Virus record (IMG/VR): IMGVR_UViG_3300037467_000112
Location: 1-51,342 of that record
Reading direction: 5' to 3' (one strand)
DNA: 51,342 nt
Origin: a virus
Taxonomy: Duplodnaviria; Caudoviricetes
Positions 1-35,812 of the stretch are shown here, one piece after another (positions within the stretch are counted from its first letter, which is position 1; every line of letters begins with the position of its first letter). The notes beneath the pieces were generated by a model. It saw only the letters and a program-made list of their open reading frames with translations. It had not been told where the DNA came from and ran no database searches. A program made the position numbers and the translations under genes.

Positions 1-127
1 ACAATAAAAGAAGGGAAGACAAAATGTCTTAACGTCTTGAATAGTAAACAGCGAGACTAACTAACTGTGAAATGGTAACAGTTAAAGTTGTGCAACGCTA
101 ACTGCGTTAGCTACCAAGAGAGTAACC
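1..127. repeat. Terminal direct repeat, copy 1 (identical to 51216-51342); probably a circular-assembly overlap
   Basis: Exact 127-nt identity with the last 127 nt; 127 is a common assembler k-mer length. Confidence 0.95.
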
Positions 128-144
128 CTCTTCGTAATACTCTT

Positions 145-173
145 ATTATAACATATTTTATAGTAAAAGTAAA
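145..173 (-). promoter_or_regulatory. Putative sigma70-type promoter reading across the junction into the structural arm
   Basis: Minus strand reads TTTACT-17 nt-TATAAT with a TG extension (ATGTTATAAT); points toward the first structural gene (51117) on the circular map. Confidence 0.6.
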
Positions 174-583
174 TAGCTGGAAGACAGTAATTGAGAATAA
201 ACACATAAAAATATGGTATAGCCGCCAAAGAGTCCAGCAGTGAGGCCAGTCGCAAGACCCAGCCCGTTATTCCAGAATTTCTTGGAGAAAATTTTTGATG
301 ATAGAGTGCAATGATACGGCACCCCCGGCCCCCCGGCGTGGCCACTCATGTTTGTTCCGGGTGCGTTCTCCTCGCGTTCACGGTGCGTTCGCCTGTAACA
401 GTTCCAGTCACAGTTCCAGTTCGCTGTCCTTCAGTATTCCCACAGCAACAAACATCCGCTTTACTGTATTCATCAGCATCATCCAGCTTGATCGCCCCCA
501 CATATATGGTAGTCTCAACTTGTCACCAAAGAAGTGTGACAGCAACGGCCCAGTCTAATGGGCTTGAACAGGAGCAGACAGAC

Positions 584-811
584 ATGAGCGTCACCGTCGA
601 ACAAGCAATCGAATACGTCCGCAAGATGATGAGCACTGATGACTACGGTACCGTCGGTGAATTGGTGCTGACTCACAACAGCAACCGTGAGTACGAGAAA
701 GGTAAGCTGATGCGTACGATCAGGATGGAGGACGATACCGGAGTGCTCGGATATTGGGATGTGTGGATGGAAGACCTCGGCGATGGTCCGTTCGTCTACG
801 GTGAATGGTAA
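584..811 (+). CDS. Early hypothetical protein (75 aa)
   Basis: ATG 584 follows AGGAG; the ORF-track start at 311 has no RBS. Confidence 0.7.
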   Translation: MSVTVEQAIEYVRKMMSTDDYGTVGELVLTHNSNREYEKGKLMRTIRMEDDTGVLGYWDVWMEDLGDGPFVYGEW

Positions 812-842
812 AGCCTCTCACGTCTGACTGAAAGGAAGACAC

Positions 843-923
843 ATGGTCACGCTCTTTGAACAGTACGCCAAGATCAAGCAACTTCAACGCAAGGTGAAGC
901 AACAGCAACAGAAGAACAAGTGA
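843..923 (+). CDS. Small early peptide (26 aa, MVTLFEQYAKIKQLQRKVKQQQQKNK)
   Basis: AAAGGAAG RBS upstream; stop lies just before hammerhead 1. Confidence 0.45.
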   Translation: MVTLFEQYAKIKQLQRKVKQQQQKNK

Positions 924-933
924 ACATCGCTAG

Positions 934-996
934 TGTCGAAAGCGTCGTGAGACGCTCTGATGTAGCTGGCTACTGCATCACTGATGAGACAAGCCA
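934..996 (+). ncRNA. Type II hammerhead ribozyme 1 (predicted cleavage after C957)
   Basis: Stem II TGTC/GACA; GAAA 938-941; stem III GCGTC-GTGA-GACGC; UC 956-957; stem I TGATGTAG/CTGCATCA; CTGATGA 981-987; loop TGGCT can pair with 3' AGCCA 992-996. Confidence 0.92.
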
Positions 997-1014
997 AGAT
1001 GAGGCCTGACTACC

Positions 1015-1293
1015 ATGACTAAGAAACAACTGATGCGTGAAGTGAAGCGCATCCTGTCTCAGATCAACTACCGCATCGACCACAGTGTTGAGTACAATGA
1101 ATACAGGTGCGCTCCGACTGATGTGAACAAGGAGACTGCTGAACGCATTGCGTACTACACGGATGATCTTCGAGACTGTGCCGCAACTGCGATCATGAAC
1201 AGGAAGCACGAAAGCAATGTGAACAATGATCCGACCGAGTACGGCCGCCTTCATGAACTGTATCTGGAGTTGAACAACTACTTCCAAGACTAA
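1015..1293 (+). CDS. Early hypothetical protein (92 aa) flanked by the two hammerheads
   Basis: ORF with GAGG RBS; no recognised family. Confidence 0.75.
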   Translation: MTKKQLMREVKRILSQINYRIDHSVEYNEYRCAPTDVNKETAERIAYYTDDLRDCAATAIMNRKHESNVNNDPTEYGRLHELYLELNNYFQD

Positions 1294-1303
1294 ACATCAC
1301 TAG

Positions 1304-1387
1304 TGTCGAAAGCGTTGGAGTGTGGTTGTTACTGCACTCCTTCGCTCGGTTGACTGTTGGCTACAGCAACCCTGATGAGACAAGCCA
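1304..1387 (+). ncRNA. Type II hammerhead ribozyme 2 (predicted cleavage after C1347)
   Basis: Stem II TGTC/GACA; GAAA 1308-1311; extended stem III GCG..GGAGTGTGGT/ACTGCACTCC..CGC; UC 1346-1347; stem I GGTTG(A)CTGT/ACAG-CAACC; CTGATGA 1372-1378; loop TGGCT with 3' AGCCA. Confidence 0.92.
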
Positions 1388-1401
1388 CATGGAGACTAGT
1401 C

Positions 1402-1653
1402 ATGGCTAAGGGTTATTCTGTCTGCACCAATGAAGATGGGTACATGGTGGAGCACATTCACTGTGAGTACATCAGCGAGTCAGCAACGGCAGCGCATCAC
1501 ATCAGCGCTCGCCTGAACAAGCCGGTATTCGTGATCAACCTGTACTGTGGAAAGTGGGTTGTTGACGTATTCATCCGCGGTGAATGCGTACTGTCGGGTA
1601 AGTTCCACAGTCAAGAGGACGCTATGTACTGGTGTCTGTCGGTCACTCACTGA
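1402..1653 (+). CDS. Early hypothetical protein (83 aa)
   Basis: ATG 1402 follows GGAG; the ORF-track start at 1357 lies inside hammerhead 2. Confidence 0.7.
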   Translation: MAKGYSVCTNEDGYMVEHIHCEYISESATAAHHISARLNKPVFVINLYCGKWVVDVFIRGECVLSGKFHSQEDAMYWCLSVTH

Positions 1654-1740
1654 ACATCGTTAGAACACAGCACAGTAACGCAAGCATCTTGTATCTCTAT
1701 CATCAATCGAGCCCACATGGCGCAGCAAAGGAATACAGCA

Positions 1741-2010
1741 ATGCACGATAATCAATTCATGATCCTGGTGAAGTACAGGCGAGACATTACTCGTCCGGGT
1801 AAGGCGAGCAAAAGGTTTCGAGTTATACGGACAGGTCTACTCAAGGACAAAGCAATCGACATTATTTGTCAGCATGTGTATCGGTCTGCTGATTACGGTA
1901 TTCTTCCGTCTGACTGGCCTGTCCGTGACTGGAGAGTAGTGTTGGATATTGGTAGAACGTACAAGACAGTGTGGTCTTGGACGCATGGTGACTGGCCTGA
2001 ACAGGACTAA
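1741..2010 (+). CDS. Early hypothetical protein
   Basis: ORF; ATG 1741 follows AAGGA (1717 is an alternative start). Confidence 0.6.
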   Translation: MHDNQFMILVKYRRDITRPGKASKRFRVIRTGLLKDKAIDIICQHVYRSADYGILPSDWPVRDWRVVLDIGRTYKTVWSWTHGDWPEQD

Positions 2011-2027
2011 TCGAAGGAGAGACAACC

Positions 2028-2180
2028 ATGCTTAAGTTGAATGATCCCACAGTAATCTTGCTTGGTCTTTGGGTGCTTGGTTTTGGCGGTGCTTACGTCA
2101 AGACAACCTTGGACAAGCTGCAACAAGCCAAAGACGATGCAGCCCGTTACCGTACAGCGTACAAATTGGTTCGTCGTTAA
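2028..2180 (+). CDS. Small membrane-anchored protein (50 aa)
   Basis: AAGGAG RBS; hydrophobic VILLGLWVLGFGGAYV followed by a helical tail; not in the ORF track. Confidence 0.65.
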   Translation: MLKLNDPTVILLGLWVLGFGGAYVKTTLDKLQQAKDDAARYRTAYKLVRR

Positions 2181-2233
2181 ACCGTGCTTGCACTCAAGCA
2201 CACTAGCAACTCAAGTCGAAAGAACTGAGACTA

Positions 2234-2446
2234 ATGCAAATGAACCTGATCTTTGACAGCAAAGCCTGTCCGTCCGTGGTTGTTGACTACTACGATATAC
2301 CCGAATGGCTTAACTTGGGCTATCGTACATGGAATGTATTCGTCTGTACCGGATACGACAACTTACCTTGGATCGGTACACTTGAGCGCATTCAACATGA
2401 GACAGGATGCTTGACGCTTCTGTCTTTGCTCTATGGGGAGAAGTAA
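2234..2446 (+). CDS. Early hypothetical protein (70 aa)
   Basis: ORF tightly packed with its neighbours. Confidence 0.55.
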   Translation: MQMNLIFDSKACPSVVVDYYDIPEWLNLGYRTWNVFVCTGYDNLPWIGTLERIQHETGCLTLLSLLYGEK

Positions 2447-2448
2447 TC

Positions 2449-2574
2449 ATGTTTGGATTTGGCAACATCACCTATGACGACACAGTTGATCCTGACTTCG
2501 ACGACTTCACGGACATGAGTGAAGAAGATTTGTTGTTGTTTAAGGAACTCGAAGCTGAACTAGAGGAGAAGTAA
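2449..2574 (+). CDS. Very acidic small protein (41 aa)
   Basis: GGAG RBS; MFGFGNITYDDTVDPDFDDFTDMSEEDLLLFKELEAELEEK. Confidence 0.6.
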   Translation: MFGFGNITYDDTVDPDFDDFTDMSEEDLLLFKELEAELEEK

Positions 2575-2576
2575 TC

Positions 2577-2831
2577 ATGTCTAAGGACTGGAAATACCGA
2601 GTGCTCTATGTAGTACCGGCCGAGTACAACTGCCGTATTCACATACATGAGCGAAGGTTTCATGACTGGTATAAGTGTTTTGATTACGCATTTGACATAC
2701 TGAACTTCGGTAAAGCGTCAGTATGTATTCAGGAACGTGTGTCCCGTGGTCATTGGTGGAATAGATTCGCCAGTAAACCGGACAGTCATGGTGACGGTTG
2801 GGTGCATCCCGATACTGATGTAATACAGTAA
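2577..2831 (+). CDS. Early hypothetical protein (84 aa)
   Basis: GAGGAG RBS and ORF. Confidence 0.7.
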   Translation: MSKDWKYRVLYVVPAEYNCRIHIHERRFHDWYKCFDYAFDILNFGKASVCIQERVSRGHWWNRFASKPDSHGDGWVHPDTDVIQ

Positions 2832-2835
2832 CACG

Positions 2836-2877
2836 CTAGTTGAGGGGTAGTACAGATACAGTATTGCCCCTCACTAG
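2836..2877 (+). terminator. Long hairpin after the first early gene block (terminator or processing site)
   Basis: CTAGTTGAGGGGTAGTAC-AGATACA-GTATTGCCCCTCACTAG; no clear U-tract. Confidence 0.45.
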
Positions 2878-3009
2878 TCTGCCTTGCATCTCTATCATCA
2901 TTCACACGGCACGGGGCGGAGCACGGTAAGGTGTTGAAAAGGCACAGCTATTTGACTCCTGTGCTGCCTGCACACACGCGCGCGCGTTCCGATTCCCGCG
3001 CAATCAGGG

Positions 3010-3145
3010 TTTATCGTTATTCGATAAAGGTTTATCGTTAAACAATATCAAGTAACACCGTTGTTACACAAGGCACCCCTGATTTATCGTTTTTCGATAA
3101 GGGTTCGTCGTTTGTCGATAAAAGTCGATCACGCTTTCGTGATAA
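3010..3145. repeat. Array of TTATCG-N5-CGATAA palindromes (operator- or iteron-like)
   Basis: Copies at 3010-3028, 3084-3100 and 3104-3122 (imperfect), a half-site at 3031-3037, plus GTAACA-CCGT-TGTTAC and ATCACG-CTTT-CGTGAT. Confidence 0.7.
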
Positions 3146-3261
3146 CAAGCCTGTATCTTTCCTCGGCGGGGTATGAGCATATGGTCGGTGTCGGCGGCGG
3201 AAACGTCCCGGCCGCGCCGCGAGGGTCCTCCGGCGTGACTTCACATACCGGGAGGCGTGTC

Positions 3262-3720
3262 ATGGCCGCGAGGCTTGGCAAGCGCGAACGGGCGGCTCGC
3301 AAAGCGCTTCTCGATGAACGTCGGGCGTGCGTTGCGGCGAACCTGAACGCGCCTCAACCGGAACCGCAACGGGTTGCCGTCCGCACTAAGTCGGGCGCAC
3401 TCACGGTCATTCGTGATCGGTCGGGTTCCAGTCAATCAACCGAGCGTCTCGGCTCCTGCTACGGGTTGTTCAGCGATCCGCGCGGGAACGTGATTAACGG
3501 CCGCACTGTGAACGGCAAGATTGTGCGTGGTAAGGTTGTCAGAAATGACGGCCCGTCCAAGCCGATGCGGTTCCTGTGCGTCGATGCGGACGGCAATTCG
3601 TGGGGCGGTTTCGACCGTCTCAAGGATGCGACGGACGCCTGTACGCGACTGTCCGCCCGGCTCAAGCGGCCTATTCGGCTGCAAGAGAACCCTCTTGCCC
3701 TCGCTCGGGTGAAAGGGTAA
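3262..3720 (+). CDS. Highly basic protein (152 aa) with an N-terminal Arg-rich motif
   Basis: GGAGG RBS before ATG 3262; MAARLGKRERAARKALLDERR; stop codon abuts structured RNA 1. Confidence 0.75.
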   Translation: MAARLGKRERAARKALLDERRACVAANLNAPQPEPQRVAVRTKSGALTVIRDRSGSSQSTERLGSCYGLFSDPRGNVINGRTVNGKIVRGKVVRNDGPSKPMRFLCVDADGNSWGGFDRLKDATDACTRLSARLKRPIRLQENPLALARVKG

Positions 3721-4255
3721 GCTACCTCACAACTGGCGCGGGGCCTCACGGTCCTACGCCGCGTGTACGCTGCACGATAACTAAGCGAAGGTTAAAGGTG
3801 GAACCGCGCGTGCGGTGGATGCCCCTAGCTCACTTGTGGGTGTGGGGCTGAAGCTGCGCCGGACCGTGCTGCAATGCACCCTCTAGGTTCGTAAACCCTT
3901 GCCAGTGTTGCGCTTTCGCGCACATTGGTTCTCGCGCTCGCGCATGGTAAGGCTGCACACGCCAGACGTGTCTCCTTGCTTGCCCGTTCGTGTCTGCTGC
4001 TCCGCCGGTCTAGCACCCGGCGTGGGATGCACACAGGCACGCTCGGAACCGGTCGCACGTACGCTAAGGGACCCGCCCTCGAACTCTGGAGGGCGGGGAT
4101 ACCACGATGAATGCCGCACATGGCGCTATGCTGTGTGCGGTGTTTGTCGTTAGCGTTAGGGGCACACGTTGCGAGCGTGGCTTGGAACGGCTGTAAAGGC
4201 TTAACCATTGTTTCGTGTGCTCCTTACCCTAGCGACAAGCGTTGTGCTAGGTGGC
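3721..4255 (+). ncRNA. Large structured non-coding/leader RNA 1 (about 535 nt), family unknown
   Basis: The two ends pair (GCTACCT-CACAAC 3721-3733 with GTTGTG-CT-AGGTGGC 4241-4255) and enclose many G-U-containing helices; no credible ORF inside. Confidence 0.7.
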
Positions 4256-4275
4256 CAAACAAAGGAGACACCTAC

Positions 4276-4947
4276 ATGGCCGAACTGCCCAAACTGCTTC
4301 CCGCGAAGCAGATCTCCGCTCGCAACGTCACCATCGGCGAGACGGCGGACAACCTCGACAAGCTGGTGTTCGAGAACGCCATCCAATGCGCCCTCCACGC
4401 GCAGCAGCACGGTGACGTCACGCTCATGGCAGACCTGCTGAACCGCGTCGGCGGCACGAAGCGCAAGGGCTTCAACGCCGAAGGCTTCATCAAGTGGGTG
4501 TACGATCACACGCCCATCCGCGACGGCGGCAAGGACGCGAAGGGCAACCGGGCGCTCGGCTTGCTCAAGCGCGGCATCAACAAGGACTTCCCCGCGAAGC
4601 CGGACGAGCCGGACTCGGTGGCGTGGAAGATCGAGGAAATGATCGCCACGCCGTACTGGAACTACGCCCCGTCGGCGCCTCCGCGTGCTCGCCCGCCCCT
4701 GTCGGCGGACGAAATCCAGAACAACATCATCAAGTTCGCGGACCGGATCGAGACGGCCGTGAAGCAGGACAAGTTCGAGGGCGGCGAAGGCGAGGCGCGC
4801 AAGGCCATGACGGCGCTCGCCGCCGCGGTCAAGGCGTACAACGAGGCGATGCGGACCATGCAGGAAGCGCCCGACACGGCGCACCTGCGCGATCCCCGCC
4901 GCGAGGAGCACCCGTCCTTCAACCAACCCGTCGCCGGCACCGCCTGA
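4276..4947 (+). CDS. Phage protein (223 aa), probably highly expressed
   Basis: AAAGGAG RBS; very strong G/C-ending codon bias; HAQQHGDVTL segment reminiscent of conserved podovirus early proteins. Confidence 0.85.
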   Translation: MAELPKLLPAKQISARNVTIGETADNLDKLVFENAIQCALHAQQHGDVTLMADLLNRVGGTKRKGFNAEGFIKWVYDHTPIRDGGKDAKGNRALGLLKRGINKDFPAKPDEPDSVAWKIEEMIATPYWNYAPSAPPRARPPLSADEIQNNIIKFADRIETAVKQDKFEGGEGEARKAMTALAAAVKAYNEAMRTMQEAPDTAHLRDPRREEHPSFNQPVAGTA

Positions 4948-4998
4948 TCCAACTCCGCCTCCCAAGGGCAGAGAGTAGTGAGTAAGCACAAAGCGTAA

Positions 4999-5029
4999 GC
5001 CCCCGGTGCAACCGTGCCGGGGGTTTTCC
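4999..5029 (+). terminator. Rho-independent terminator
   Basis: GCCCCCGGTGC-AACC-GTGCCGGGGGT followed by TTT. Confidence 0.7.
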
Positions 5030-5057
5030 TGTGTGCTTAGCGGAAAGGGTACACGCT

Positions 5058-5303
5058 ATGTCTCAATTCAATGTGGCCCCGAGCTTGACGCCGGGGCTGT
5101 ATGTCGTTGTTCGCAACAATGGCGAGACGACGTACATGTCGCTGTTCGGGTTCGGCACTGGCCGCAGGGCCAAGTGGGTGACGAACAAGGAAAGCGCGTC
5201 ACACTTCCGTGAGGCTGAGGCCGTGCGGTGGTGCGACAGCCTGAACCTTTCGTTAAGGCGTGGGCAGGGGGATAGGCATCTCTATCATCAGCCCAATGCC
5301 TGA
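5058..5303 (+). CDS. Hypothetical protein (81 aa)
   Basis: ATG follows AAAGGG. Confidence 0.65.
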   Translation: MSQFNVAPSLTPGLYVVVRNNGETTYMSLFGFGTGRRAKWVTNKESASHFREAEAVRWCDSLNLSLRRGQGDRHLYHQPNA

Positions 5304-5496
5304 CAACGCGAAGGGCTACGTCATTAAGGCGGGACCGCGGTATGCGGTTCTGCAAGGGCGTGAAGTGCATCACTACACGTCTGACTGTCACGCCGCTACT
5401 CGGTTCAGCAAGAGCCGGGACGCGATGGACGTTATCTCCGAGCTTCCCCCGTCTGCTGTGAAGCATTACGTGGTGTTGTATCGGTCTTGCCTCTGA
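5296..5496 (+). CDS. Hypothetical protein (66 aa)
   Basis: ATG overlaps the end of the upstream gene. Confidence 0.55.
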   Translation: MPDNAKGYVIKAGPRYAVLQGREVHHYTSDCHAATRFSKSRDAMDVISELPPSAVKHYVVLYRSCL

Positions 5497-5500
5497 GTGC

Positions 5501-5876
5501 TACCGCACTTGGGGAATAGTGCGTTTGTTGAGTTGCGTACACTGGCCGAAGTGGCTGGTGGGTGCAGGTCGGGGGGACACAACCCCATACCAAAACGGTG
5601 TGGGGCCGACCTGAGTAAGCGGTAAGGGAGCGCCCCCGCGTCTTCCGAACCCGTCGGCAGAAAACTGCTCATTCTTTTTCAAGCCGGGTGCAACCTTTTT
5701 TACAACGTTGTTTGTAGTGAGTACACATGCGTGCCTCTTGGTGCATATCGAGAGGAAAGCTCGCTCCGTGTGTGTACTCTCTACAGCCAACGTGGCTGTG
5801 CGGTACGTAAGCCGTTGATCTTACGTCGTCTGACGGGGGTTGGACGTTAAACAACCAACTCCAACGAGGGTTGGCT
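5501..5876 (+). ncRNA. Structured non-coding/leader RNA 2 containing a c-di-AMP (ydaO)-riboswitch-like core
   Basis: TACCGCAC 5501-5508 pairs with GTGCGGTA 5798-5805; long helix 5705-5731/5767-5793; blocks GGGGGGAC, TGGGGCCGAC, GGTAAGGG and CCGAACCCGTCGGC occur in ydaO order. Confidence 0.6.
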
Positions 5877-5894
5877 AAACAAAGGATTATCCCT

Positions 5895-6053
5895 ATGAAC
5901 GCTGTGCGTTGGTCCGTTCGTGACCGTGTTACCGGTGAAGTCCTGAACCTCGCCGGTCCCGACCGCAAAGACAAGAAGGCGCAGGCTCGTTTCATGGACG
6001 GGCTGCGTGTGCGGTCGAAGCTGGGCTCCCGTGGCGGGTGCCTGCACGCCTAA
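5895..6053 (+). CDS. Small basic protein (52 aa) downstream of RNA 2
   Basis: AAAGGA RBS before ATG 5895. Confidence 0.7.
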   Translation: MNAVRWSVRDRVTGEVLNLAGPDRKDKKAQARFMDGLRVRSKLGSRGGCLHA

Positions 6054-10089: not shown

Positions 10090-10737
10090 ATGAAAGTTTT
10101 CATCCAAGGTCCCGGTGCTGGGGCATACATCATGATGTTCCTGCGGGCTGGCTTCAAGGGGGCAGCCAGTGTGGACGATGCGGACATTGTTTGCTTCACC
10201 GGTGGTGAGGACGTTCACCCGCATTACTACAACGAGGACCCCCTTCGCTGCACGTACTTCAACCTGAAGCGAGACGAAGAGGACGTCAAGGTCTTCAACC
10301 GCGCCAAGGAACAGCAGAAGTTCATGGTCGGCATCTGTCGTGGCGGTCAGTTTCTGAACGTCATGGGCGGCGGCAAGCTGTGGCAAGACGTGGACGAACA
10401 TGGCCGGGAACACTGGCTGCTGGACATGCTGACCGGGGCCAAGATTTGGGTCACCAGCACGCACCATCAGCAGATGATCCCCGGCGACAAGGCTGACGTA
10501 TGGGCCACTGCGAACTGCTCCAACAACAAGTACGGCTACGGCAAGGAGTGGTCCCGCAAGAGCCCTGAGGCTGATGCCTTTGACGTGGAGGTCTGCTGGT
10601 ATCCCCACATTCGTGCTCTGTGCTTCCAGCCTCACCCGGAAATGTACGGCGCTTCGGAGGGGTGTATCAACTACTTCTTCCAGTGCCTGAAGAACGCCAT
10701 GAAGATCGTTGAGGAGCAAGACGAATGTGTGGCCTAG
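10090..10737 (+). CDS. Class I glutamine amidotransferase / peptidase C26-like
   Basis: FTGGEDV, GICRGGQ nucleophile elbow, STHHQ, QPHPE. Confidence 0.9.
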   Translation: MKVFIQGPGAGAYIMMFLRAGFKGAASVDDADIVCFTGGEDVHPHYYNEDPLRCTYFNLKRDEEDVKVFNRAKEQQKFMVGICRGGQFLNVMGGGKLWQDVDEHGREHWLLDMLTGAKIWVTSTHHQQMIPGDKADVWATANCSNNKYGYGKEWSRKSPEADAFDVEVCWYPHIRALCFQPHPEMYGASEGCINYFFQCLKNAMKIVEEQDECVA

Positions 10738-12041
10738 TCGGCGTAGCCGGGTCAATCGACAATCAGGACATTGGAGCATTCAATGATCTGCTGTTGGCCA
10801 ACGTGGTTCGTGGAAAACACAGCACTGGTGTTGCTGGTGTGGATCGCGGCAATCGTTCCCACCTGATCAAGTGTGTCGGTGGTCCGCTGGACCTTCAGGA
10901 ACAGAAAGGCTACGACAACGTAGTTCGACAGGACAAGAAGGTTCTGATCGGTCACAATCGTCATGCCACCGTGGGCGGGGTGTCCAAGGTCAACGCCCAC
11001 CCGTTTGACTTCGACAATCTTGTTGGGGCTCACAACGGCACGGTCGACAAGTTCAGGCTCAAGGATCACAACGAGTTCCCCACGGACTCGGAAGCCCTGT
11101 ACAACAACATGAACCTGTTTGGCCCCGAAGAGACGATCAAACTGATCAGTGGGGCGTGGGCCTTGACGTGGTACGACAAGGGTTACAAGACCATCAACCT
11201 GATCCGCAACAAAGAGCGGCCCCTCTTCTACACGCTTTGTGACGAAGGGAAGTCGCTCTGGTGGGCCAGTGAAGCAGGTATGCTGCGCTGGTGCCTTGAG
11301 CGGAACCGCATCGAGGTCAGCAAAGTGTACTTCCTTGAGGAAGACATGATGCTGACTTGGGAGGTTCCAGCATACGGCAAACCCTTTTGCGAACCCGAGG
11401 CGACAAAGGTTGAAGGGTATAAGTACTTTCCACCAGTGGTGGATAGGCGGGCATCGTCTGCCGTAAACTGGAACCAACGTGGAGGTAGCCAACCCGGCGG
11501 CCCCCCTTTGTCCCTTCCCAAGGGGGCCTTGTCGACCCCGACGAACTCCCCTGGGACGATGAGATCGACGACATCTTCGGGACAGGATGGTCAGCAATCG
11601 AAGACGTCCTCCAACGTCGTGCCGCTCAACAGCTCGAACTTGCTCTCGAACAAGAAGTCGAGCAACGAAAGCGAGAACGAGAAGGACGGAAACCTGTCGT
11701 CTGGTGTGATAAGTACCATCGAAAGGGGAAGACAGGGAAAACCTTCGGAAGCCGAAGCTGGAAACGATGGTCAGCAAAGCACTGGCCGGGCCTTGACCTT
11801 GAGTGACCTGAAACTTCAGGAAGCTGGCCGAGGAACCAAGATCTATAAAGACAAGCACAACGGTCGTATCATTACGAAGAAGGTGTTTGCTAACCTGACC
11901 ATAAAAGGGTGTAGCTGGTGCTGCCGCTCGCCTGATTACGGCGAAGACTTCTATGTGTTCGGAACTCCGTCTGACAATGAGTTCCTTTGCGAGGACTGTT
12001 CCGTCGACCCGGACGTCCAAGCTTGTGCCCACATCCACTAG
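10725..12041 (+). CDS. Class II (Ntn) glutamine amidotransferase with a Ser-rich linker and C-terminal Zn-finger
   Basis: MCGLVG N-terminus, RG.HSTG, GHNRHAT, NAHPF, HNGT, TDSE; C-terminal CSWC..CEDC. Confidence 0.9.
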   Translation: MCGLVGVAGSIDNQDIGAFNDLLLANVVRGKHSTGVAGVDRGNRSHLIKCVGGPLDLQEQKGYDNVVRQDKKVLIGHNRHATVGGVSKVNAHPFDFDNLVGAHNGTVDKFRLKDHNEFPTDSEALYNNMNLFGPEETIKLISGAWALTWYDKGYKTINLIRNKERPLFYTLCDEGKSLWWASEAGMLRWCLERNRIEVSKVYFLEEDMMLTWEVPAYGKPFCEPEATKVEGYKYFPPVVDRRASSAVNWNQRGGSQPGGPPLSLPKGALSTPTNSPGTMRSTTSSGQDGQQSKTSSNVVPLNSSNLLSNKKSSNESENEKDGNLSSGVISTIERGRQGKPSEAEAGNDGQQSTGRALTLSDLKLQEAGRGTKIYKDKHNGRIITKKVFANLTIKGCSWCCRSPDYGEDFYVFGTPSDNEFLCEDCSVDPDVQACAHIH

Positions 12042-12906: not shown

Positions 12907-13527
12907 ATGCGATACGAGAACGTTGAAGAGGCCGAGTCCCGGCTGCGGTCCACTGTCGTCATGTACGACGGTAAGCCGGTCTGGGTTGATCATGTGGTCC
13001 GGGGAACCGGTCCGTCTGGGCTGTCCGTTCAGATCTATTCCCTGCCCCGGCTGAGGGAAAAGCGGGAGGTTGACCTGTTCGACCCCAAGCTGAACATGCG
13101 GAACATTCCGTTGGGGTATGTGAACTACGGTCATGACGCCCTGTACCTGACCCGGATGCCGGCCCGTCGTTTCAAGCAGGGTTTGAACTCCGAGAACGTT
13201 CACATCCCCCGGGACAAGATGTTCAACGAGCACGGGGACCGGATCAATTGGGGTACGATCTACTCCAGCCAGGGGTTTGCCGATTCGATGTCGGGTAAAT
13301 TTCCCAGCTTCGAAGAGGCTGCGAAGAAGCTGGCCGACGAATCTGAGTTCAAGTCTGTCGCCTTCAGTCGGGTGTTCGCGCTCTCCCGAAACCCTCTCGG
13401 CCTGAACATCTTGCTTTACAAGGGCAACGAGGTTGCTTGGTCTGAAAGCCACGCCTTCAAGCTGCCCGGCAACAAGAGTTTCCTGCAACAAGTGATCGAA
13501 CAACACGGAGTCAAACTCGCGTCATGA
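12907..13527 (+). CDS. Conserved-looking hypothetical protein of the ligase cluster
   Basis: 206-aa ORF between two ligases; LGYVN and R.P.R..KQGL motifs. Confidence 0.8.
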   Translation: MRYENVEEAESRLRSTVVMYDGKPVWVDHVVRGTGPSGLSVQIYSLPRLREKREVDLFDPKLNMRNIPLGYVNYGHDALYLTRMPARRFKQGLNSENVHIPRDKMFNEHGDRINWGTIYSSQGFADSMSGKFPSFEEAAKKLADESEFKSVAFSRVFALSRNPLGLNILLYKGNEVAWSESHAFKLPGNKSFLQQVIEQHGVKLAS

Positions 13528-14612
13528 GCAACAAGGCAAAGGGCTGGAACCTTCCTGTCACGGAGCTGATGGGTCAGCGTGGTGTCAAGGAAGGTGAGGT
13601 TGGCATCGAGATCGAAGCCGAAGGATACCTGCTTCCTGCCGCTGTCAAGGGTACGTATTGGACTGTACACGACGACGGCAGCCTTCGCCTTCCGCCTGCC
13701 AAGGTTGTCGGTGCGTTCCCTGTGGCCGGTAGTGCGTACGAGTACGTGCTCAGGCAGCCTGTGAAGCGGGACAAGGTTGAGGCGGCTCTGGACAATCTCA
13801 CTAAGGCCCTGACCGAGAGCAAGGCCGAAGTGGTCATGTCCAACCGCTGCAGCGTCCACATTCACCTGAACTGTCAGGGTATGTTGATGCGACAGGTGTA
13901 CAATCTTATCACTCTGTCGGGCATCTTCGAAAGCCTGTTGTCGGAATACTGTGGTGACGACCGGATCGGCAATCTGTTTTGTCTGCGACAAAGCGATGCT
14001 GAGTTCATGGTCAGAGCGCTGGCTGAATGTCTGACTACCAATCAGTACAATTGGTTTGTCAATGACAATCTGCGCTACGCGTTCCTGAACGTTACGTCTC
14101 TTCCGAAGTACAACTCGGTCGAGTTCCGTGGTCTGCGCGGTACTGTGGACAAGCCGACCATCGAGACTTGGGTTCGGATGCTGCTGTCCATGCAAGACGC
14201 AGCCAAGACGTACAGCAGCCCGGCTGAGATCATCCAAGAGTTCAGTGTCCGCGGTCCGGTGGCGTTCCTGATGAAGATCTTTCCGAAGGACTATCCGTGG
14301 TTCATGAACCGACAGAACTACGTTGATCGCATGTACGGCGGAATGCGCCTGATGCAGGATCTTGCCTTTGCCGTGGAGTGGGGTGAGGTCGTCAAGGCGG
14401 AGCCCGCCAAGGAATACAACGTCGTCGTCGAGCAGCAGGTGGTTGACGATTTAATGCCGGATTTTGATGAAGATGTTGATGATGGTCCCTTCCACTTCGA
14501 CATTGAAGCTGACCAACTTCTAGTGCAAGTTCAGCAAAACCCGATGCCGGGTTGGCGGCAAGTTCAAGTCCCGCCCGTGCTCCGTCGTGCAGTGGAAGAA
14601 GGAGACATTTAA
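13524..14612 (+). CDS. Putative amidoligase (amidoligase-2 family)
   Basis: GIEIE, DGSL, EYV, CSVHIHLN, RY..LN, VEFRG. Confidence 0.88.
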   Translation: MSNKAKGWNLPVTELMGQRGVKEGEVGIEIEAEGYLLPAAVKGTYWTVHDDGSLRLPPAKVVGAFPVAGSAYEYVLRQPVKRDKVEAALDNLTKALTESKAEVVMSNRCSVHIHLNCQGMLMRQVYNLITLSGIFESLLSEYCGDDRIGNLFCLRQSDAEFMVRALAECLTTNQYNWFVNDNLRYAFLNVTSLPKYNSVEFRGLRGTVDKPTIETWVRMLLSMQDAAKTYSSPAEIIQEFSVRGPVAFLMKIFPKDYPWFMNRQNYVDRMYGGMRLMQDLAFAVEWGEVVKAEPAKEYNVVVEQQVVDDLMPDFDEDVDDGPFHFDIEADQLLVQVQQNPMPGWRQVQVPPVLRRAVEEGDI

Positions 14613-27689: not shown

Positions 27690-30198
27690 CCTTGGCATAC
27701 CTCTTAGTCAGACTAAGCCTGTCGTTCCAGTGGTCAATTCCGCGGGGATTCTCCTTAGTCCATCCCTGAGCGCGTTCAAAGTTAGCCATAGCTTCAGCGG
27801 CCTCTTCAGGAGTCTTGGCAGCCATCAGCTTCTTATAGACGTCATGTTTCCGACCTTCAGCGCCCCTCAATTCGTGCAGCAGGAATTCAGTCTGCACACT
27901 GAGATCATTAGGCTGCTTGCCGCGTTGATCAGCAAACGCCTTCAGTTCGTCGAGACGGGGGCCAAGCCAGTTGGCAATACCGAAGGCACCGCTGTCCTTG
28001 TTCACCGAGTTGGGATTAACCCCACCGGATTCCCAATGAAGCGCACCAACAATAGCGGCCTGAGCAACGGGCGGGAACTCAGTGGTCTTCAGTACAGCCT
28101 GAACACTCTTTGCAGACTCGGTTGGATCAACGTCCTCCAGAGCCGTCGACTCAGCCTGCTGTTGGGCAGACTTAGCGACAACACCAGTCGACAGATTCAC
28201 CGTCTCAGCTTGAAGGTTTTGGAAGTCCTTAAGCCAAGCGTCGCGAGCCGAGTCAACCTTCTTGGTTTCACCCAGATCAAGCGGAGTGCCAAGAGCGTAG
28301 TGGTTGCGGATCGCCATGTCGGTCTGACTCTTCAGTACGTCGTCGAACTCTTTGAGACCGGTTAGGTTGTCAAGACTCTTGTTCAGAATGTCTACCTGCT
28401 TCTCAAGGGGTTCACTGCGAGTCTTGATGAAGTCTTCGTACGACATACCAGTTCCGCGCATGGCCTGATTAACAGCACCAACCCCGCCCCGGCTGTCCAT
28501 GTTGTCGACCAAACCTTGTTGCTGGCGCTTCATGAATGCAGCGTAGTCTTGGCGGGTGAGCTGAGCAATCCGATACTTGCCAGTGGCTTTGTCGTACTCA
28601 ACCTTGCGGACGATACCGAGGGCATTGTCGTTAAGCTGCATCTGGCCCTGAGTCTTAGCCGTAGTGAAGGTAAGGGCACTGGCACCCACAGTGGCGACAC
28701 CAAGGGCTCGACCGTCCTCAGCCGTGCTGGGGTTCTTGGCTAGAGCCTTGACGTAAGCCCGAATGTGAGGCTGAGCAATCATGCTGGTGGCAGTAGAAAC
28801 AGCTCCGGTGTCCTTAGTGTTAGGCGTGATGTTTTCCCTAACAGCATTGAGGAGCTTGGTCATGGGGACGACACCAGCCTGCAGAGTGGCAGGATCATTA
28901 ACCCCACCAGCAACCTGCTTAGACACAACGTCAACACCATTGGCCACCACCTTGAGAGCGTCCGACCGAATGTTGCCGTGGAACTCAGACAGCTCGGCCT
29001 TGCCACGAAGAAGACTGATCATGCGGGGCAGGAACAGTTCGGTGGAGGCGAGATCACTGAAGTCCACACCAGACGCCTCCTTCTTGAGTTGAGCGGTGGC
29101 TTCCTTGCTGAGCGGGTACATGCCCATGAAGACGGAGCTAGCCATCTGAGGACCAAGCGCCTTGTTGAGCGTCTGGTAGGCCGGGAAGGCTTGTTCAGCT
29201 TTAAGACCAAGAGTGTCGGTCATGAACTCAAACATCTTCTTGCGGTTCTCAGCAGGCATGTCTCGGATCGTGGTGAGCTGAGTCTTCCAGCCGTCAAACT
29301 TCTTGTTGATGTGGTCCAACACACTTTGGTCGGCTCCGGCCAGTTCCTGAAGAGCGGCATTGCGGCCAGTCTCGACAGCAGCCAAACCTTGGTCGATTGT
29401 TTTGGTCCAGTCGGGAATGTCTGCATCAGTTAGACCGTTGCTGACCAGCATGGCGTGGCTAGACAAGGCCCCGTACATCGGGTCCCATTTCTTGTTGACC
29501 ATCGTGATCGTGGCTTCGATGTTTCGCTCTTTGCGGAACTTGTACTCTTCTGACTCAGCCTTGGTCTTAGCCAAGGAAGCGTCCCAAGCCAGCTTGTTAG
29601 CCTCGGCTTGTTGCTTCTCCAGCAGATACTGGAAGCCCATCGTTACGGCTTTCTCGTCGTCAGCCTGAGGGCCAACAAGAACCCGGCCAATCTTAAGAGC
29701 TTGTTGACGTTGCTCAAGATCGACTTGTCGGTCCTGCTCGTCTTGCTCCATCTTGTTTTGGGTGTCGCGGAACAGATAATGGTCCCACTTATTTTTGGCA
29801 AGGTAATCAAAAGCAGCGGCAGCTTGGTCAGGATGCTGAGCGAGCGTACGACTGATGAAGTCTTCCATGTACATGTCGACAGAGCCAGCAGGACGTTGAC
29901 CCTGATCTTGTGCTTTCTGGATGATCGTCAGTTGCTTGTGAGCGTCTTCAGCGATCTTGGGCACGGTCATAAGGGGCCGACCCGAAGCAGCACTCAAGCC
30001 GGCCATCATTGACTTCACAGCGTCGTTTTGGGTAGCTCTATCATCAAGTGCTTGCTGAGACTTTTTACGGGTATCAGCAGCGTCCAGAAGCTGGCTACCG
30101 AAGTGAGCCAGCCCCGTTAGAAAGTTCGAACTAGTTCCCCGAGCGTCCACAACATTGCCGCGCGGAGAGGCGGGTTCAAGAGTTTCAGTTAGTGCCAT
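27682..30198 (-). CDS. Internal virion (ejection) protein with a C-terminal phage-tail-lysozyme domain
   Basis: 838 aa; C-terminal AAIVG.L..ESG.VNP...[10 protein letters not shown]...Q..FLLHEL..FER. Confidence 0.8.
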
Positions 30199-33100
30199 AG
30201 TTGGCAGACTCCTTTTGCATTTGAATCATCGCCTCTTCTTGAGCCCTCTTCTTGGTGAACGATTGGTTCACGCTGTCGAAGACACTTTGCGGCGTGTTGT
30301 GTTGAGTTTTGATCAGAACGTCTCGCTTGATGTCAGGGGGCAGCAGCTTCACAAACAGGTTGATCTGTTCACGAATCTCGTCTGCCTTGTCAGGATACTC
30401 AGCGTACTGTTGACGATAAGCGATCAGAACTTTGCTGGCTTCGTCCACAGACTTCTTGCGATCCTTCATCCAACCCATCATGGCCGACAGTTGGTCGATC
30501 TCACCGGGTTGAGCACCAAACACCAGGACGCCCCAAGCATCTTGCTTAGGCACGTCGTCAGCCATAATCGAACCAGAGTTATTCTGATACGTGCCGTACT
30601 TGAAGACCATGTAAGCCTTCAGGCCGTTAGACAGAGTGCTGATGTTCGACGCCAGCTTGAGAGCCGCATCTCGACTAAGCGGGTTGTCCAAGTTTCCCCC
30701 ACCTTCAGCCGTAGCGTACTTAACAAGATCAATGAAGGTCTTGCCAGTCGTGCCGACAATAGCCCCGGTAGCACCTAGACCCATCTCAGCCAAAGACTTG
30801 TCTCCGTACTGGTTCCAGCCAAAGAGACCCTTAATCAGGTCACCAGACCAGCTAGCCGTACCGAAACGCTTGCCGAGTTGAAGGTCTGCACCAGTCGTGT
30901 GGTACAGCATTTCGTCCAGTAGGCCACGGTCAAAGGCACCAGCAAGGGTGTCCAGCGGGTTCTTGCCGTCTTGTCCCGGAGGGTTGTGGTTCTTTCCAAG
31001 CTCACTGGCAACCGACAAGATCGGAACACCAGCCGTGCCGTAAAGCAGGAACTGACCGATAACCAAACGAGCCTTCTGCTCAAGCGAGAACTGTTTGCCG
31101 AAGATAGCTTCCATTACCCGAGCGTTGTACGCCCAGAATTGAGTAGGAACACTCAGCACCCCACGCTGCCACCAAGACTTGGACGCTTCACCCATGTTAA
31201 AGCTGAAGTCCTCAGCCCGGCCAGCAACCTTAGTCAGGAACTCGTTTGACTTCCAGCTAAGACGAGGAGCTTCTTCCTTGACAGTCTTCCACGCCATGTG
31301 CCAAGCAACCGAGCGGTTCCAGGCTTCACCTTCGTTGAAGAACCAGCGTCCGTGTTCTCGAACAGTCTTGACACCCTTAGTCCAGCCGCTAGAGAAGACG
31401 TTGGGTCCAGCCGACTGAATGAACTGGTGAGTACCAGCACCAACGTCGAAGAAGCCACTGTCCTTGGCAGAGCGCCACATGTGAGCCAGTTCCTCAGGAC
31501 CTTCGAAGCCGAGCTTTTCGGCCATCATGGTGTCTTGAGCAATGTGCTCGATCAGGTGTTCGCCACCCTTGGTCAGGTACGCCCTTAGGAACGGAGCGTG
31601 AACCATAGCGTCCAGACCCCGACGAGGATTGATGAGAGCCGAACTGAACATGGTCGCGCCCTGCAGAGCAAGCTGAGCGGGGTTGAACAGACCAAGCTTC
31701 ATGTCGAAGGCCCAGCCACGCAGCTTCATCAGGGGATTTTCAGTCTCCCACCAATTGGTCACAGCGTAGCCGAGCTTGTGTCTAACGGACTCAGGGTTGG
31801 GTCCCATCACCCAATTAGCCACATCTCGGGCATGTTGTTCAGCAGCCAAGTCGAAATCAGTCTTCCAGCCTAGGATGCTTTGAACAGCCTTACGCTGAGT
31901 CTCAGCCTGCTGGGCAATCAGATTGACTCGCTTGTTACCTTTGACTAGTTCACCCTTCATGAAGCGAGCCATGTTGGACGCATCAGCGGGCAGGTTGGTC
32001 TTGTCGATGTAGCGGTCGTACGTCTTGACCCAGCGCTCAACAGCCTGAGTCTTGAAGTCCGACATACTCGTCAGGTTGGCGATGTTCATAATCGACTTGT
32101 TGATGGTCTTGAACGGATCAATCGTCTTGGCGTCTTGTCCCATCCAGTTCGGAAGAATGTCACCCTTGCCGCTGTAGTACATCTTACCATTGCTTCGAAG
32201 CCAGCCAGCGAAGCCGGTCTCTTCGGGGTCATGGTAGTGCTCGACAGCGTTCTGCATAGCGTACTCATCCGGCAACTCTCGGTCGAAGTAGCCACGGATC
32301 GGAGTGTCGGCTGCAATCTCCTTGTTGGTGATCATAGCCCTGAACTCATCACCACTCGGAAGACCGGCGTGACCCTGGAAGATTAGTTCGTCCAGTTCAG
32401 CACCGGTGATGTCCGGGTTAGTGACAAGAGCTTGACGGGCAGCCTCCATGCGCCCAGCCCAGAACTCTACTTCAGCTTTGGTGCCAGTCATGAAGGTGTT
32501 GGGCGAAGCAAGGTAGCGATCTCCGGTGTCTTTCTGGAAACCGTAGCGAGCCTGCTTGGCGAAATACTTCCCCTCGTACATACGGTGGCCACCTTCACGG
32601 TAAGCCAGTTGAGTCCGACGAAGCGAGTTGACTTCAAGCTCATTCGGCTTAGCAAGGAAGTTCTTCACCACGGTTCCGTCAGCCAGTTCCATCGGGCGTT
32701 CCAGTTTAACAAGGATGTAACCCTGAGCCTTCAGACGGTTCCACTCCTTTTCAGTGAGCGGGTTCTGTCGGTTGTAGTGGAAGTTCTTGCTGACATTGTA
32801 CACACGGTCACGGGGCATAGTTTCCATAGCCCGATCAACCAGAGCGTTCTCACCGTCAGCAATACCGATCGGAGTGTGGAACGACACCGACTCAAAGCCG
32901 CGGATAGCTTTCTGCTTCCACAGTTCGTCGTTACGCAGAGCGAACTCAACGTCGTTGATGTTTACAGCAGCTTGGTACGCATCGTACTCACGGTCAGACA
33001 AAGGCCGACCCATGCGCTGATAAAGCACTTCAAGCTCGGAGCGGTTGAACCACTTGCCGTCCAGCTCACCCTTCTTCAGCACCTCACCGAGCAGAAGTTT

Positions 33101-35812
33101 CTGGTTATGATTAAGCTGGCTAAAGGTTTCGCTGTACATCTTCGACAGAGACGTGATGATCTTCTGTCGGGTGTTGGCCGACCGAGCAGCGACGTTGAAC
33201 AGGTGGTCATTCAGAAGCTGTCGGCTGCCCAGCACAAAGCGGCTGAGGAAGTTCTTGGAAGCCGTCGGGGTTTCCATCGTGAAGAAGTTGGTTTCAATCA
33301 TGTCACGATCAACAGTGACGTGCCACGTACCAGCCTCGTCTTGAACCGCATTGGTCACCACCGGAGCTTGAGTAGGCGCATCTTTGGGAGAAGGTACAGT
33401 TTCCAGCGGAAGATCGTTACCACCAACTAGCTCCTCAGTAGGAACAAATGTCTCTTTGCCATCATACTCGACCGGAGTAAAAGATCGTCCAGTTTTAGGG
33501 TCGATCTGAGCTTCGCCGGTGATCTTAACGGGATAGTCCGTATCCTTAGAGCGCCAGACAGCATCCCTACCGGCAGCAGTTCGCGCTTTCATATCTTTAG
33601 GGAACTGACTCGACTTGGCCTTCACCCCACCACGAGGACCGTGAGTGGTGTACGACAGCTTAGAGGTCTCTTCGACAACCTTGCTGGTGCCTTCGTGGAC
33701 TTCCATAGTGACCGGATGGTGAGTCAGCTTTTCAGCAGGCGTACCCGTGAAGTTGCTGATCACTTGACCGTTCTTGATGTCGTCAATCGGCCGCACTTCA
33801 CTCTTACCGAAGCGCAACACAACTCGACCATTGGGATACTCGGCCTTTAACTTCTTCCACAGGCTTTCAACCTGCTTGGCAGTCATGCCCTTGCCTTCGA
33901 GCTTGTGGGCAACCTTAACAGTCGGCACAAGCTTCTCAGTCTTGGTGACAGCAGGAACAAGGTCGTCGAGCTTCTTGGCAGCCGGGCTGGTTACACCGCG
34001 GCGCGACGTCTTGAGCCCTTCAGCAGCGTCCACCAACTCTTGACGGGGGCTGCCTGGAATGTGAATAACCTCGTGCTCACCAAAGCCAAAGCTGTGAGCC
34101 CAATTGCGGGCTTCCGCTTCCGACGTAAAGTCGCCGACAACAAACTTAAGGCGCTTGGTCGTGGAGCCGTCAGCCAGACGAACATCAGACTCAATGACGT
34201 CCTTGACTTCCCGCTTGATGATCGACTCAAAGCGTTCCTTGTTACCGAGGATAGCCGCCTTGATCTCTTCGTCGGTCAGACGACCAGACTGGCGGAGTCG
34301 ATTAAAGACCTCTGACACAGTTTTCTGGGCGTTCTCCAGACGGGTGGCAATGTCCACCGGAGCCGGAACCGTGCTGGCAGCAAGGTGGGGCTCAGGGTTC
34401 ACAGCAGTCGGCAGGGCATTGGCAACAGCCTCATCCATCGACACACCAGTCTTCTCAGCAGCCTTAGCAGCGCCTTCGGCCTCAATCTCCACGAAGGTCC
34501 GAGCAACCAGCTCACTGGCCTCCCTACGGGCACCAGCACGGGCCATCATGCCGGTCAGACTACCGACACCCTTGACCAGCTTCATGCCCTTTGCGACCTC
34601 AGCGGGGCCGACCCAGCCAAAGTTGTCCAGAGTGTCAAACAAGTTCTGGGCGGTGGCAGACGGAGTAGCGCCCAAGCGAGTCAGGATCTCCAGTTCTTGG
34701 GTTCGGCTTTCCAGGCCGAGGGTGGTAGCGTTCTGCGTGACGTTGGGGATTAGCTCCTCACGAACGTACTTGCTGAAGTCCTGAATGGGCATGTGCCACA
34801 GGCTTGCAGCTTCGTTCTCTTGACGCTGACCCGACGCAAGGAAGTCGTACCAGTGCTCAGCCACGTTGTCGGCTCGAACGTTCCCGGTGTTGCCACCAGA
34901 GTTCTTGAGCGGAATCATTCCCATCGCGAAGTCAAAGAGGTTCAGGTACCACGGGTGGTCGTCCACACGCAGCTTGGCCTTCTCGATCTCACGCTGAAGA
35001 ATTAGACGCTTGGCTTCAATGTCGGCAACAGTGTGCGTAGCGTCTCCGTACTGAAGGTTGTTCAGCAGGAGCTTGGCCTGTTGGTCGTCGCCAGCAGCCG
35101 CAAGGTTTTGAATGTTTTCGACAGCACGTTTCTCAGCAGCGTATTCGGCACGCTTCCGAATGTCTTCAGCCATAACAGCCTGAGCGACAGCAGCCGAACC
35201 CTGCAGAACAGTCGGGTCCATTTCCAAGCCAGTGCGTTGCTTCAGGATGTTGACCTGACTGTTGAAGGTGCGCTGCTGGTCTTCCTTGGCGATCTCAATA
35301 CGGTGGCCATAGTCGGTCTCACTGTTGATCGCCTGCTTGTAGACTTCATTAGCGCTGGACAGCGTGTCAATTACGTCTTGACCGTCTGCGACGTGTTTGT
35401 CGATATTGGCCAAAGACAGAACAGTAGCCTGACGATCCTTGGCTTTGTCGGGAATAGCTTCAGGCGTCACTTCGGGCTGGGGGATGGTTCCAAACACACC
35501 TCCTTGAGCAGTGTCACCCGGAATGGACGCACTGAACAGGTTAGCCTGATCTTCATGGATAGCCTGAGCCGCAGCATCAGCTTCAGCCTGATTGTCGTAG
35601 ATACCCATGTGCTTTCCAGTCCTTCTATAGGTCTCAATAGCCTCTTGGTCGGACATGATACGTCCATCGTCAGAGACAGTAGGAATGATGGTCTCACCCC
35701 TATCAGTTCCGATGGTGATGGACCTTACAGTACTAATTGTGCCGTCTGCATTGTGGACAATGGGACGATGTTGTAGATCAATATTACCGGGTTCAAGCAA
35801 AGCTCCGGCCAT
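30185..35812 (-). CDS. Large internal virion (ejection) protein, 1875 aa
   Basis: Size and position after the tail genes; Ala/Gly-rich, largely helical character. Confidence 0.75.

Follow-up and report, generated by a model that had tools for sequence, protein, structure and literature searches.

We report two elements in a virus genome that, read from their sequence, are type II hammerhead ribozymes of the pseudoknot subclass (HH_A and HH_B), and whose most likely function is to divide a polycistronic mRNA into pieces of one gene each, every new end bearing a hairpin. They add two examples to a ribozyme class known in phages since 2011. The window, by which we mean the whole stretch of DNA analysed (51,342 bp), is a complete virus record with 127-bp direct terminal repeats and a G+C content of 53%. 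Both elements lie in spacers between co-directional + strand ORFs, 0.9–1.4 kb from the left genome end, and are made up as follows.

934–996, + strand: HH_A, predicted type II hammerhead with pseudoknot tail (direct reading, descriptor, Rfam 26.3 bits, R1 67.8 bits)
934–937 / 988–991, + strand: HH_A stem II, UGUC with GACA
938–941, + strand: HH_A GAAA
942–946 / 951–955, + strand: HH_A stem III, with GUGA loop
957/958, + strand: HH_A predicted cut site at the hammerhead consensus position, after C17 (C957), with U956 before it
958–965 / 973–980, + strand: HH_A stem I, with loop cUGGCUa at 966–972
981–987, + strand: HH_A core CUGAUGA
967–971 with 992–996, + strand: HH_A pseudoknot, loop UGGCU with tail AGCCA
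1304–1387, + strand: HH_B, predicted type II hammerhead with pseudoknot tail (direct reading, descriptor, R1 49.1 bits)
1304–1307 / 1379–1382, + strand: HH_B stem II
1308–1311, + strand: HH_B GAAA
1312–1345, + strand: HH_B stem III, long (34 nt), with a UU/UU internal loop
1347/1348, + strand: HH_B predicted cut site at the hammerhead consensus position, after C1347, with U1346 before it
1348–1371, + strand: HH_B stem I, with A1353 bulged
1372–1378, + strand: HH_B core CUGAUGA
1358–1362 with 1383–1387, + strand: HH_B pseudoknot, loop UGGCU with tail AGCCA

From 5' to 3', both copies run UGUC, GAAA, stem III, UC, stem I with its UGGCU loop, CUGAUGA, GACA and AGCCA, which is the type II permutation: stems I and III are loop-closed and stem II is open. 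Direct reading places the core C3-U4-G5-A6-N7-G8-A9 between stems I and II in each copy, and this CUGAUGA aligns to the core of the Rfam model as well as to that of the covariance model R1 described below. Both copies also have G12-A13-A14 followed by the A15.1-U16.1 pair and a non-G (C) at position 17, and the G10.1-C11.1 pair is formed by G988-C937 in HH_A and G1379-C1307 in HH_B. Helix lengths from the descriptor were 4 bp for stem II, 8 and 5(+4) bp for stem I, and 5 and 3(+) bp for stem III. The MFE fold of HH_B contains stems III and I, and that of HH_A contains stem III and the pseudoknot pairing. When both strands of the window were scanned with a generic type II descriptor that leaves the pseudoknot aside, HH_A and HH_B were the sole matches; 100 dinucleotide shuffles gave a mean of 0.01 sites and a maximum of 1, with two or more sites in none. 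The conserved 5' and 3' blocks each occur twice in the window.

A sequence-only reading of this DNA had described two intact type II hammerheads with CUGAUGA, GAAA, a CUC triplet and stems I–III; direct reading bears this out, and the descriptor, the Rfam alignment and R1 agree. The pseudoknot it proposed between a UGGCU loop and an AGCCA tail is found in both copies (5 bp) and covaries in the family, and the cuts it predicted at 957/958 and 1347/1348 match the consensus placement. Its statement that stems I and III differ completely between the copies and still pair is right as to the pairing and too strong as to the difference. The copies have in common their first three pairs of stem III (GCG/CGC), several pairs of stem I and the entire stem II and pseudoknot sequences; the remaining stem I and III sequence differs, with pairing kept. 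Pair 15.2-16.2, next to the cut site, is G-C in both copies, giving the CUC triplet.

An Infernal search with the Rfam Hammerhead_II model (RF02276), the check that had been suggested for this assignment, did not recognise either copy at the Rfam cut-off. There were no matches at the gathering threshold over the whole window, none in the search of the phage record, and none at E <= 10 in window 800–1500 (701 nt). In an 83-nt search with laxer filters HH_A scored 26.3 bits (E 5.7e-4) over the full model length, below the gathering cut-off of 37 bits, which is an operational limit and no structural criterion of class membership; a 105-nt search at E <= 10 gave no match to HH_B. As a positive control, RF02276 recognises 26 hammerheads at 37–52 bits in 14 related viral loci. 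The shortfall is likely due to the rare G-C swap at 15.2-16.2, which makes the CUC site, and to the long stem III of HH_B. We also scored the window with R1, built from 87 aligned sequences out of 94 non-redundant viral (IMG/VR) sequences, window excluded, that a pattern based on the conserved blocks (GTCGAAA...TGGCT...CTGATGAGAC) had retrieved. Run unfiltered across the entire window, R1 gave 67.8 bits for HH_A (933–999, E 9e-16) and 49.1 bits for HH_B (1303–1390, E 7e-11), the third-best match being 11.2 bits; these scores are partly circular for the conserved blocks, since the pattern that brought in the training relatives came from the window itself.

The conserved-block pattern matches at least 119 viral contigs, together with 32 stretches in bacterial genomes of highly diverse phyla, and R1 run over 87 loci plus the window yields 159 matches at E <= 1e-3. 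By these matches the pseudoknot type II subclass is abundant in viral contigs. Covariation was counted on the best 150 of the 159 R1 matches, aligned to the model, so that helices 1–3 are judged on a model-fitted alignment; the pseudoknot is absent from the R1 model itself. In these 150 sequences 94.4% of cells are paired versus 68.7% when shuffled, and the covariation score is 0.646 versus at most 0.123 with the partners slid. Both sides have changed in 21 of 23 pairs, including 5/5 pseudoknot pairs, and all four helices covary. For the pseudoknot, 92% of cells are paired and 130/150 sequences have 5/5 bp, with matched variants such as UGGUU/AACCA, UGACC/GGUCA and UGGGU/ACCCA. Pair 15.2-16.2 is C-G, corresponding to a GUC site, in 144/150 sequences and G-C in 3/150; a CUC triplet occurs in 2/150, namely HH_A and HH_B alone. 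The stem III hairpin ranges from 11 to 34 nt, and HH_B has the longest.

This alignment bears on whether HH_A and HH_B are decayed look-alikes whose cleavage has been lost, a reading that we judge very improbable. Both copies lie under the Rfam threshold, but all required core positions are consensus in each. The G-C pair with its CUC site is rare, but the swap is compensatory and kept in both copies, and hammerheads do cleave CUC sites: the available part of one study (PMC11875169) gives CUC as a working triplet, cut by a hammerhead in vitro and in cells. Likewise, stem III of HH_B is unusually long and interrupted by a UU/UU internal loop, but the length of this stem is unconstrained in the family (11–34 nt), and stems I and III have diverged between the copies with pairing intact. 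A possible internally deleted relic at 2201–2233 would fit a history of decay. Given the intact cores and the compensatory changes, inactivity of the two ribozymes appears unlikely.

The relatives also show how these ribozymes are spread along a genome. Among the loci listed, 54 have a single copy and 2 have the maximum of 10, none has ribozymes on both strands, and the intervals between successive copies (n=65) span 258–1895 nt (median 418); HH_A and HH_B are 370 nt apart. One-strand arrays were observed in L070 (873–4610, 10 copies), L091 (809–6037, 10 copies) and L089 (9827–12350, 7 copies), with a spacing of ~300–450 nt and about one ribozyme per small gene. Arrays of 7–10 copies exceed the three-ribozyme tandem clusters described in the available text of Perreault et al. 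2011 (PMC3088659).

In the window itself, the two hammerheads alternate with three small ORFs.

843–923, + strand: putative 26-codon ORF 5' of HH_A, TGA at 921–923, RBS-like GAAAGGAAG at 830–838; no Pfam match
1015–1293, + strand: 92-aa ORF between HH_A and HH_B, GAGG at 1001–1004, ATG at 1015, TAA at 1291–1293
1402–1653, + strand: 83-aa ORF 3' of HH_B, GGAG at 1391–1394, ATG at 1402; no family match

The location between cistrons on the coding strand, as claimed by the sequence-only reading, is thus seen directly, with + strand ORFs on either side of each ribozyme. So is the arrangement in which both start about 10 nt after a stop codon behind a common leader and end just before an RBS: each begins 10 nt past the stop, and each tail lies 4–5 nt 5' of an SD-like GAGG or GGAG. 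One correction is that the putative gene upstream of HH_A is just the 26-codon ORF (843–923). The 92-aa ORF has no PHROG or Pfam match. The small ORFs around the two ribozymes in general gave no Pfam and no PHROG match, and no relatives among the ORFs beside other hammerheads.

Proximity to a stop codon is common across the family. Of 137 evaluable members, 99 are preceded by a frame, open for 40 codons or more, whose stop overlaps the first base of stem II or is no more than 3 nt away from it, compared with 3/137 on the opposite strand and 29/750 at random positions. We found no statement of this adjacency in the phage-hammerhead literature as far as its available text extends; the supplementary alignments and gene-context figures of Perreault et al. 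may show it, and larger arrays as well. A downstream ORF starts within 80 nt of 130/137 ribozymes versus 538/750 random positions, a weaker signal because random positions are also often near an ORF start. The ORFs downstream of the relatives' hammerheads have a median length of ~102 aa; among 124 of them, a PHROG_1297 ATPase accounts for 14 and anti-restriction, anti-repressor or methyltransferase/methylase genes for a few, and most have no match (E <= 1e-5).

Such spacing raises the question of whether the ribozymes chiefly control translation, and not mRNA stability, either because cleavage frees or standardises the downstream 5' UTR or because a terminating ribosome gates folding. Ribozyme insulators are used to standardise 5' UTRs in synthetic operons. 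The pseudoknot tail ends 4–5 nt from the SD-like GAGG/GGAG, and the leader CAUC can pair with the core GAUG in the HH_B MFE fold. Where the stop codon abuts the ribozyme, as in the 99/137 relatives, a terminating ribosome would cover the ribozyme 5' strand; in the window, however, the stop codons are 10 nt upstream and do not abut, and tight gene packing could alone give stop adjacency. In some eukaryotic RNA viruses self-cleavage drives translation initiation, according to the available part of that report (PMC13725137), but this precedent is eukaryotic and cap-related. We consider translational control improbable as the chief role of the two ribozymes.

The 10-nt leader ACAUCRCUAG between the stop codon and each ribozyme belongs to a 13-nt unit (stop + ACATCRYTAG) that recurs, 370 and then 360 nt apart, behind three successive small ORFs.

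921–933, + strand: stop + ACAUCGCUAG, copy 1, the HH_A leader
1291–1303, + strand: stop + ACAUCACUAG, copy 2, the HH_B leader
1651–1663, + strand: stop + ACAUCGUUAG, copy 3, with no hammerhead 3' of the repeat

Within it, RAACATCRYTAG occurs in three exact copies at 922, 1292 and 1652. Allowing 1 mismatch this sequence has 5 matches, a number reached in 0/100 shuffles, and R1 gave no match behind the third copy (1651–1663). The repeat might mark a cassette boundary, be left over from the end of a donor gene, or take part in anti-core pairing. That the leader TAG is an ancestral in-frame stop is a guess; among ORFs of 30 aa or more, none terminates at 933 or 1303. A leader-plus-ribozyme pattern had 2 matches in viral contigs, which we rejected as AT-rich chance matches without a hammerhead, and a window-specific pattern had 0 matches in metagenome contigs. 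Farther downstream, the spacer before the ATG at 2234 contains, at 2201–2233, CACTAG followed by AGTCGAAAG-AA-CTGAGAC. This may be a hammerhead relic from which stems I and III were deleted; R1 gives it 9.9 bits (E 1.2), a score possible by chance. A 7-bp hairpin at 2185–2202 comes after the preceding stop codon.

On sequence grounds the window is an uncultured soil podophage related to Zobellviridae. Its terminase is 58–69% identical to those of podophages of Roseobacter, Celeribacter and Lentibacter (Zobellviridae), and DNA of the hammerhead region is present in soil and rhizosphere metagenome runs, those listed being all of DNA type. The left half of the window encodes, on the + strand, a primase/helicase, a DNA polymerase, a ribonucleotide reductase and numerous small ORFs without family; the right half encodes terminase, portal/adaptor, major head and tail proteins on the - strand, where a 1875-aa ORF also lies (30185–35812). 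No tRNA genes were found in the window, a promoter/terminator scan of 1–3000 gave no signal above shuffles, and a DNA search with 1–6000 found no match among deposited phages. Searching viral contigs for related loci with the 166-aa and 83-aa neighbour proteins gave 0 confirmed loci.

Some further features of the genome were observed. A glutamine amidotransferase-like gene (PHROG 18128/4736) lies near an amidoligase gene (PHROG 7469) on the + strand, at 10725–12041 and 13524–14612, an accessory pair that is unusual for a podophage of ~51 kb. A 21-nt motif, CTTGYATCTCTATCATCAWTC, is present in three copies (1688–1708, 2883–2903 and 5273–5293), two of them ~25–30 nt 5' of + strand ATGs (1717 and 5296); it may serve the small-gene block as a promoter or regulatory site. 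At 3008–3133, TTTATCGTT/TTCGATAA repeats are clustered and in part palindromic (TTATCG...CGATAA), resembling operators or iterons.

Five deposited relatives were found via the terminase, which is 58–67% identical in them, and RF02276 had no match in any of them, a test of limited sensitivity since the same search missed HH_A and HH_B. A pattern search matched the five in two places only, neither of which is hammerhead-like when the sequence is read. As these relatives are without the motif, it appears dispensable in this phage lineage.

This absence is one of several observations suggesting that the ribozymes may be carried along largely as passengers, or may mark the boundaries of gene cassettes that can be exchanged, with cleavage neutral or secondary; the conserved blocks (23 nt 5' and 16 nt 3') would then act as short homologies for swapping small early genes. 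Metagenome contigs point in the same direction: those from two soil runs (X5 and X6) follow the window to 1387, the last pseudoknot base, and past it share one unrelated sequence with a new RBS and ATG, while one contig has 483 other letters in place of 874–1346 and keeps 1346–1387, the 3' half of HH_B. These junctions come from few, low-depth contigs, however, and contigs of four metagenome runs showed such junctions only, with no variant letters within the ribozymes. The genes beside family members vary, and the leader repeat stands at three successive gene ends. Homology alone, though, would not sustain covariation of four helices and a near-invariant core across 150 sequences, nor would it explain that HH_A and HH_B stay paired through different stem sequences. 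We think it unlikely that cassette exchange is the main reason for the ribozymes, and it is compatible with a role in processing.

Under the favoured processing reading, a multi-gene RNA would be transcribed from the + strand, and each ribozyme would fold and cut itself, after C957 and after C1347, so that the cistrons are separated. The upstream piece would end 3' in the stem III hairpin plus an unpaired C with a 2',3'-cyclic phosphate; the downstream piece would begin with a 5'-OH and the stem I hairpin from nucleotide 1, a few nt before the ribosome-binding site. Computed folds of the cleavage products agree: their 5' ends are paired in stem I, and stem III lies at the 3' terminus. Hairpins on both ends of a piece follow from the type II topology and, of the three permutations, type II alone would leave a closed hairpin on both new ends. 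Each gene would thereby obtain its own defined, hairpin-capped mRNA, independent of upstream context. In E. coli mRNA decay, RNase E is stimulated by a 5'-monophosphate; on this model, such ends would resist both 3' exonucleases and 5'-monophosphate-stimulated RNase E. Transcription across HH_A and HH_B, their cleavage in vivo and any effects on mRNA stability or translation are inferred.

The same two cuts would release a 390-nt RNA (958–1347). Since the copies do not differ in stem II or in the pseudoknot, the HH_B 5' half at the 3' end of this RNA and the HH_A 3' half at its 5' end can form a hybrid hammerhead that keeps the two ends together. The 5'-OH and 2',3'-cyclic phosphate ends of the RNA might be joined by the reverse ribozyme reaction or by a host RtcB-type ligase. 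That the excised RNA circularises into an exonuclease-proof mRNA for the 92-aa protein is highly improbable, we believe; if true, phages would have an equivalent of the circles formed by viroids or retrozymes. Perreault et al. sought spliced or circular products of the prophage clusters and, by the available text, saw none (PMC3088659).

Much of this has precedent. The available text of Perreault et al. 2011 (PMC3088659) describes natural type II hammerheads with a pseudoknot between loop I and the 3' tail, including its importance in mutants, reports that several hammerheads flank single genes in prophages and that clustered ones cleave in vitro and in E. coli, and already proposes a role in cutting long phage transcripts. 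The sequence-only reading arrived at this standing hypothesis and added to it the RNase E stability argument as a conjecture. A 2019 review, in the part available, repeats polycistronic processing but calls it unproven, asking for more work on the purpose of phage hammerheads (PMC6765202), and three type II hammerheads near phage-like genes of Desulfovibrio vulgaris cleave in vivo according to the available part of another report (PMC8782182). As far as these texts go, HH_A and HH_B share with the type II hammerheads of Perreault et al. and RF02276 the open stem II, the core, the loop-I/tail pseudoknot and the occurrence as multiple copies flanking single genes in phage or prophage intergenic regions. 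The prophage clusters of Agrobacterium tumefaciens, Azorhizobium caulinodans and Clostridium scindens are likewise tandem ribozymes on one strand bracketing small unassigned genes, again by the available text (PMC3088659). They differ in being integrated in cultured bacteria, with cleavage shown, whereas the setting here is a free, complete phage genome and cleavage is predicted.

Within their class the two copies depart from the usual form in several ways: they have G-C/CUC instead of C-G/GUC, HH_B has a 34-nt stem III, a 10-nt repeated leader follows the stop codon where in most relatives the stop abuts, and unlike Hammerhead_II members both fall below the Rfam gathering threshold. A complete phage genome in which two ribozymes bracket one 92-aa gene, with a rare compensatory G-C/CUC change missed by the Rfam threshold, makes a clean test case, and stop adjacency, one-gene spacing and hairpins on both ends lead to testable predictions on mRNA end protection and translation coupling. 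Outside the class, the closest likeness is to phage T7, whose RNase III sites between early genes are cut by a host protein enzyme that leaves a 5'-phosphate and a 3'-OH. Those sites are likewise structured and intercistronic and leave hairpins on the products, by analogy only and without homology; unlike them, the RNA of HH_A and HH_B would cut itself, giving a 5'-OH and a 2',3'-cyclic phosphate.
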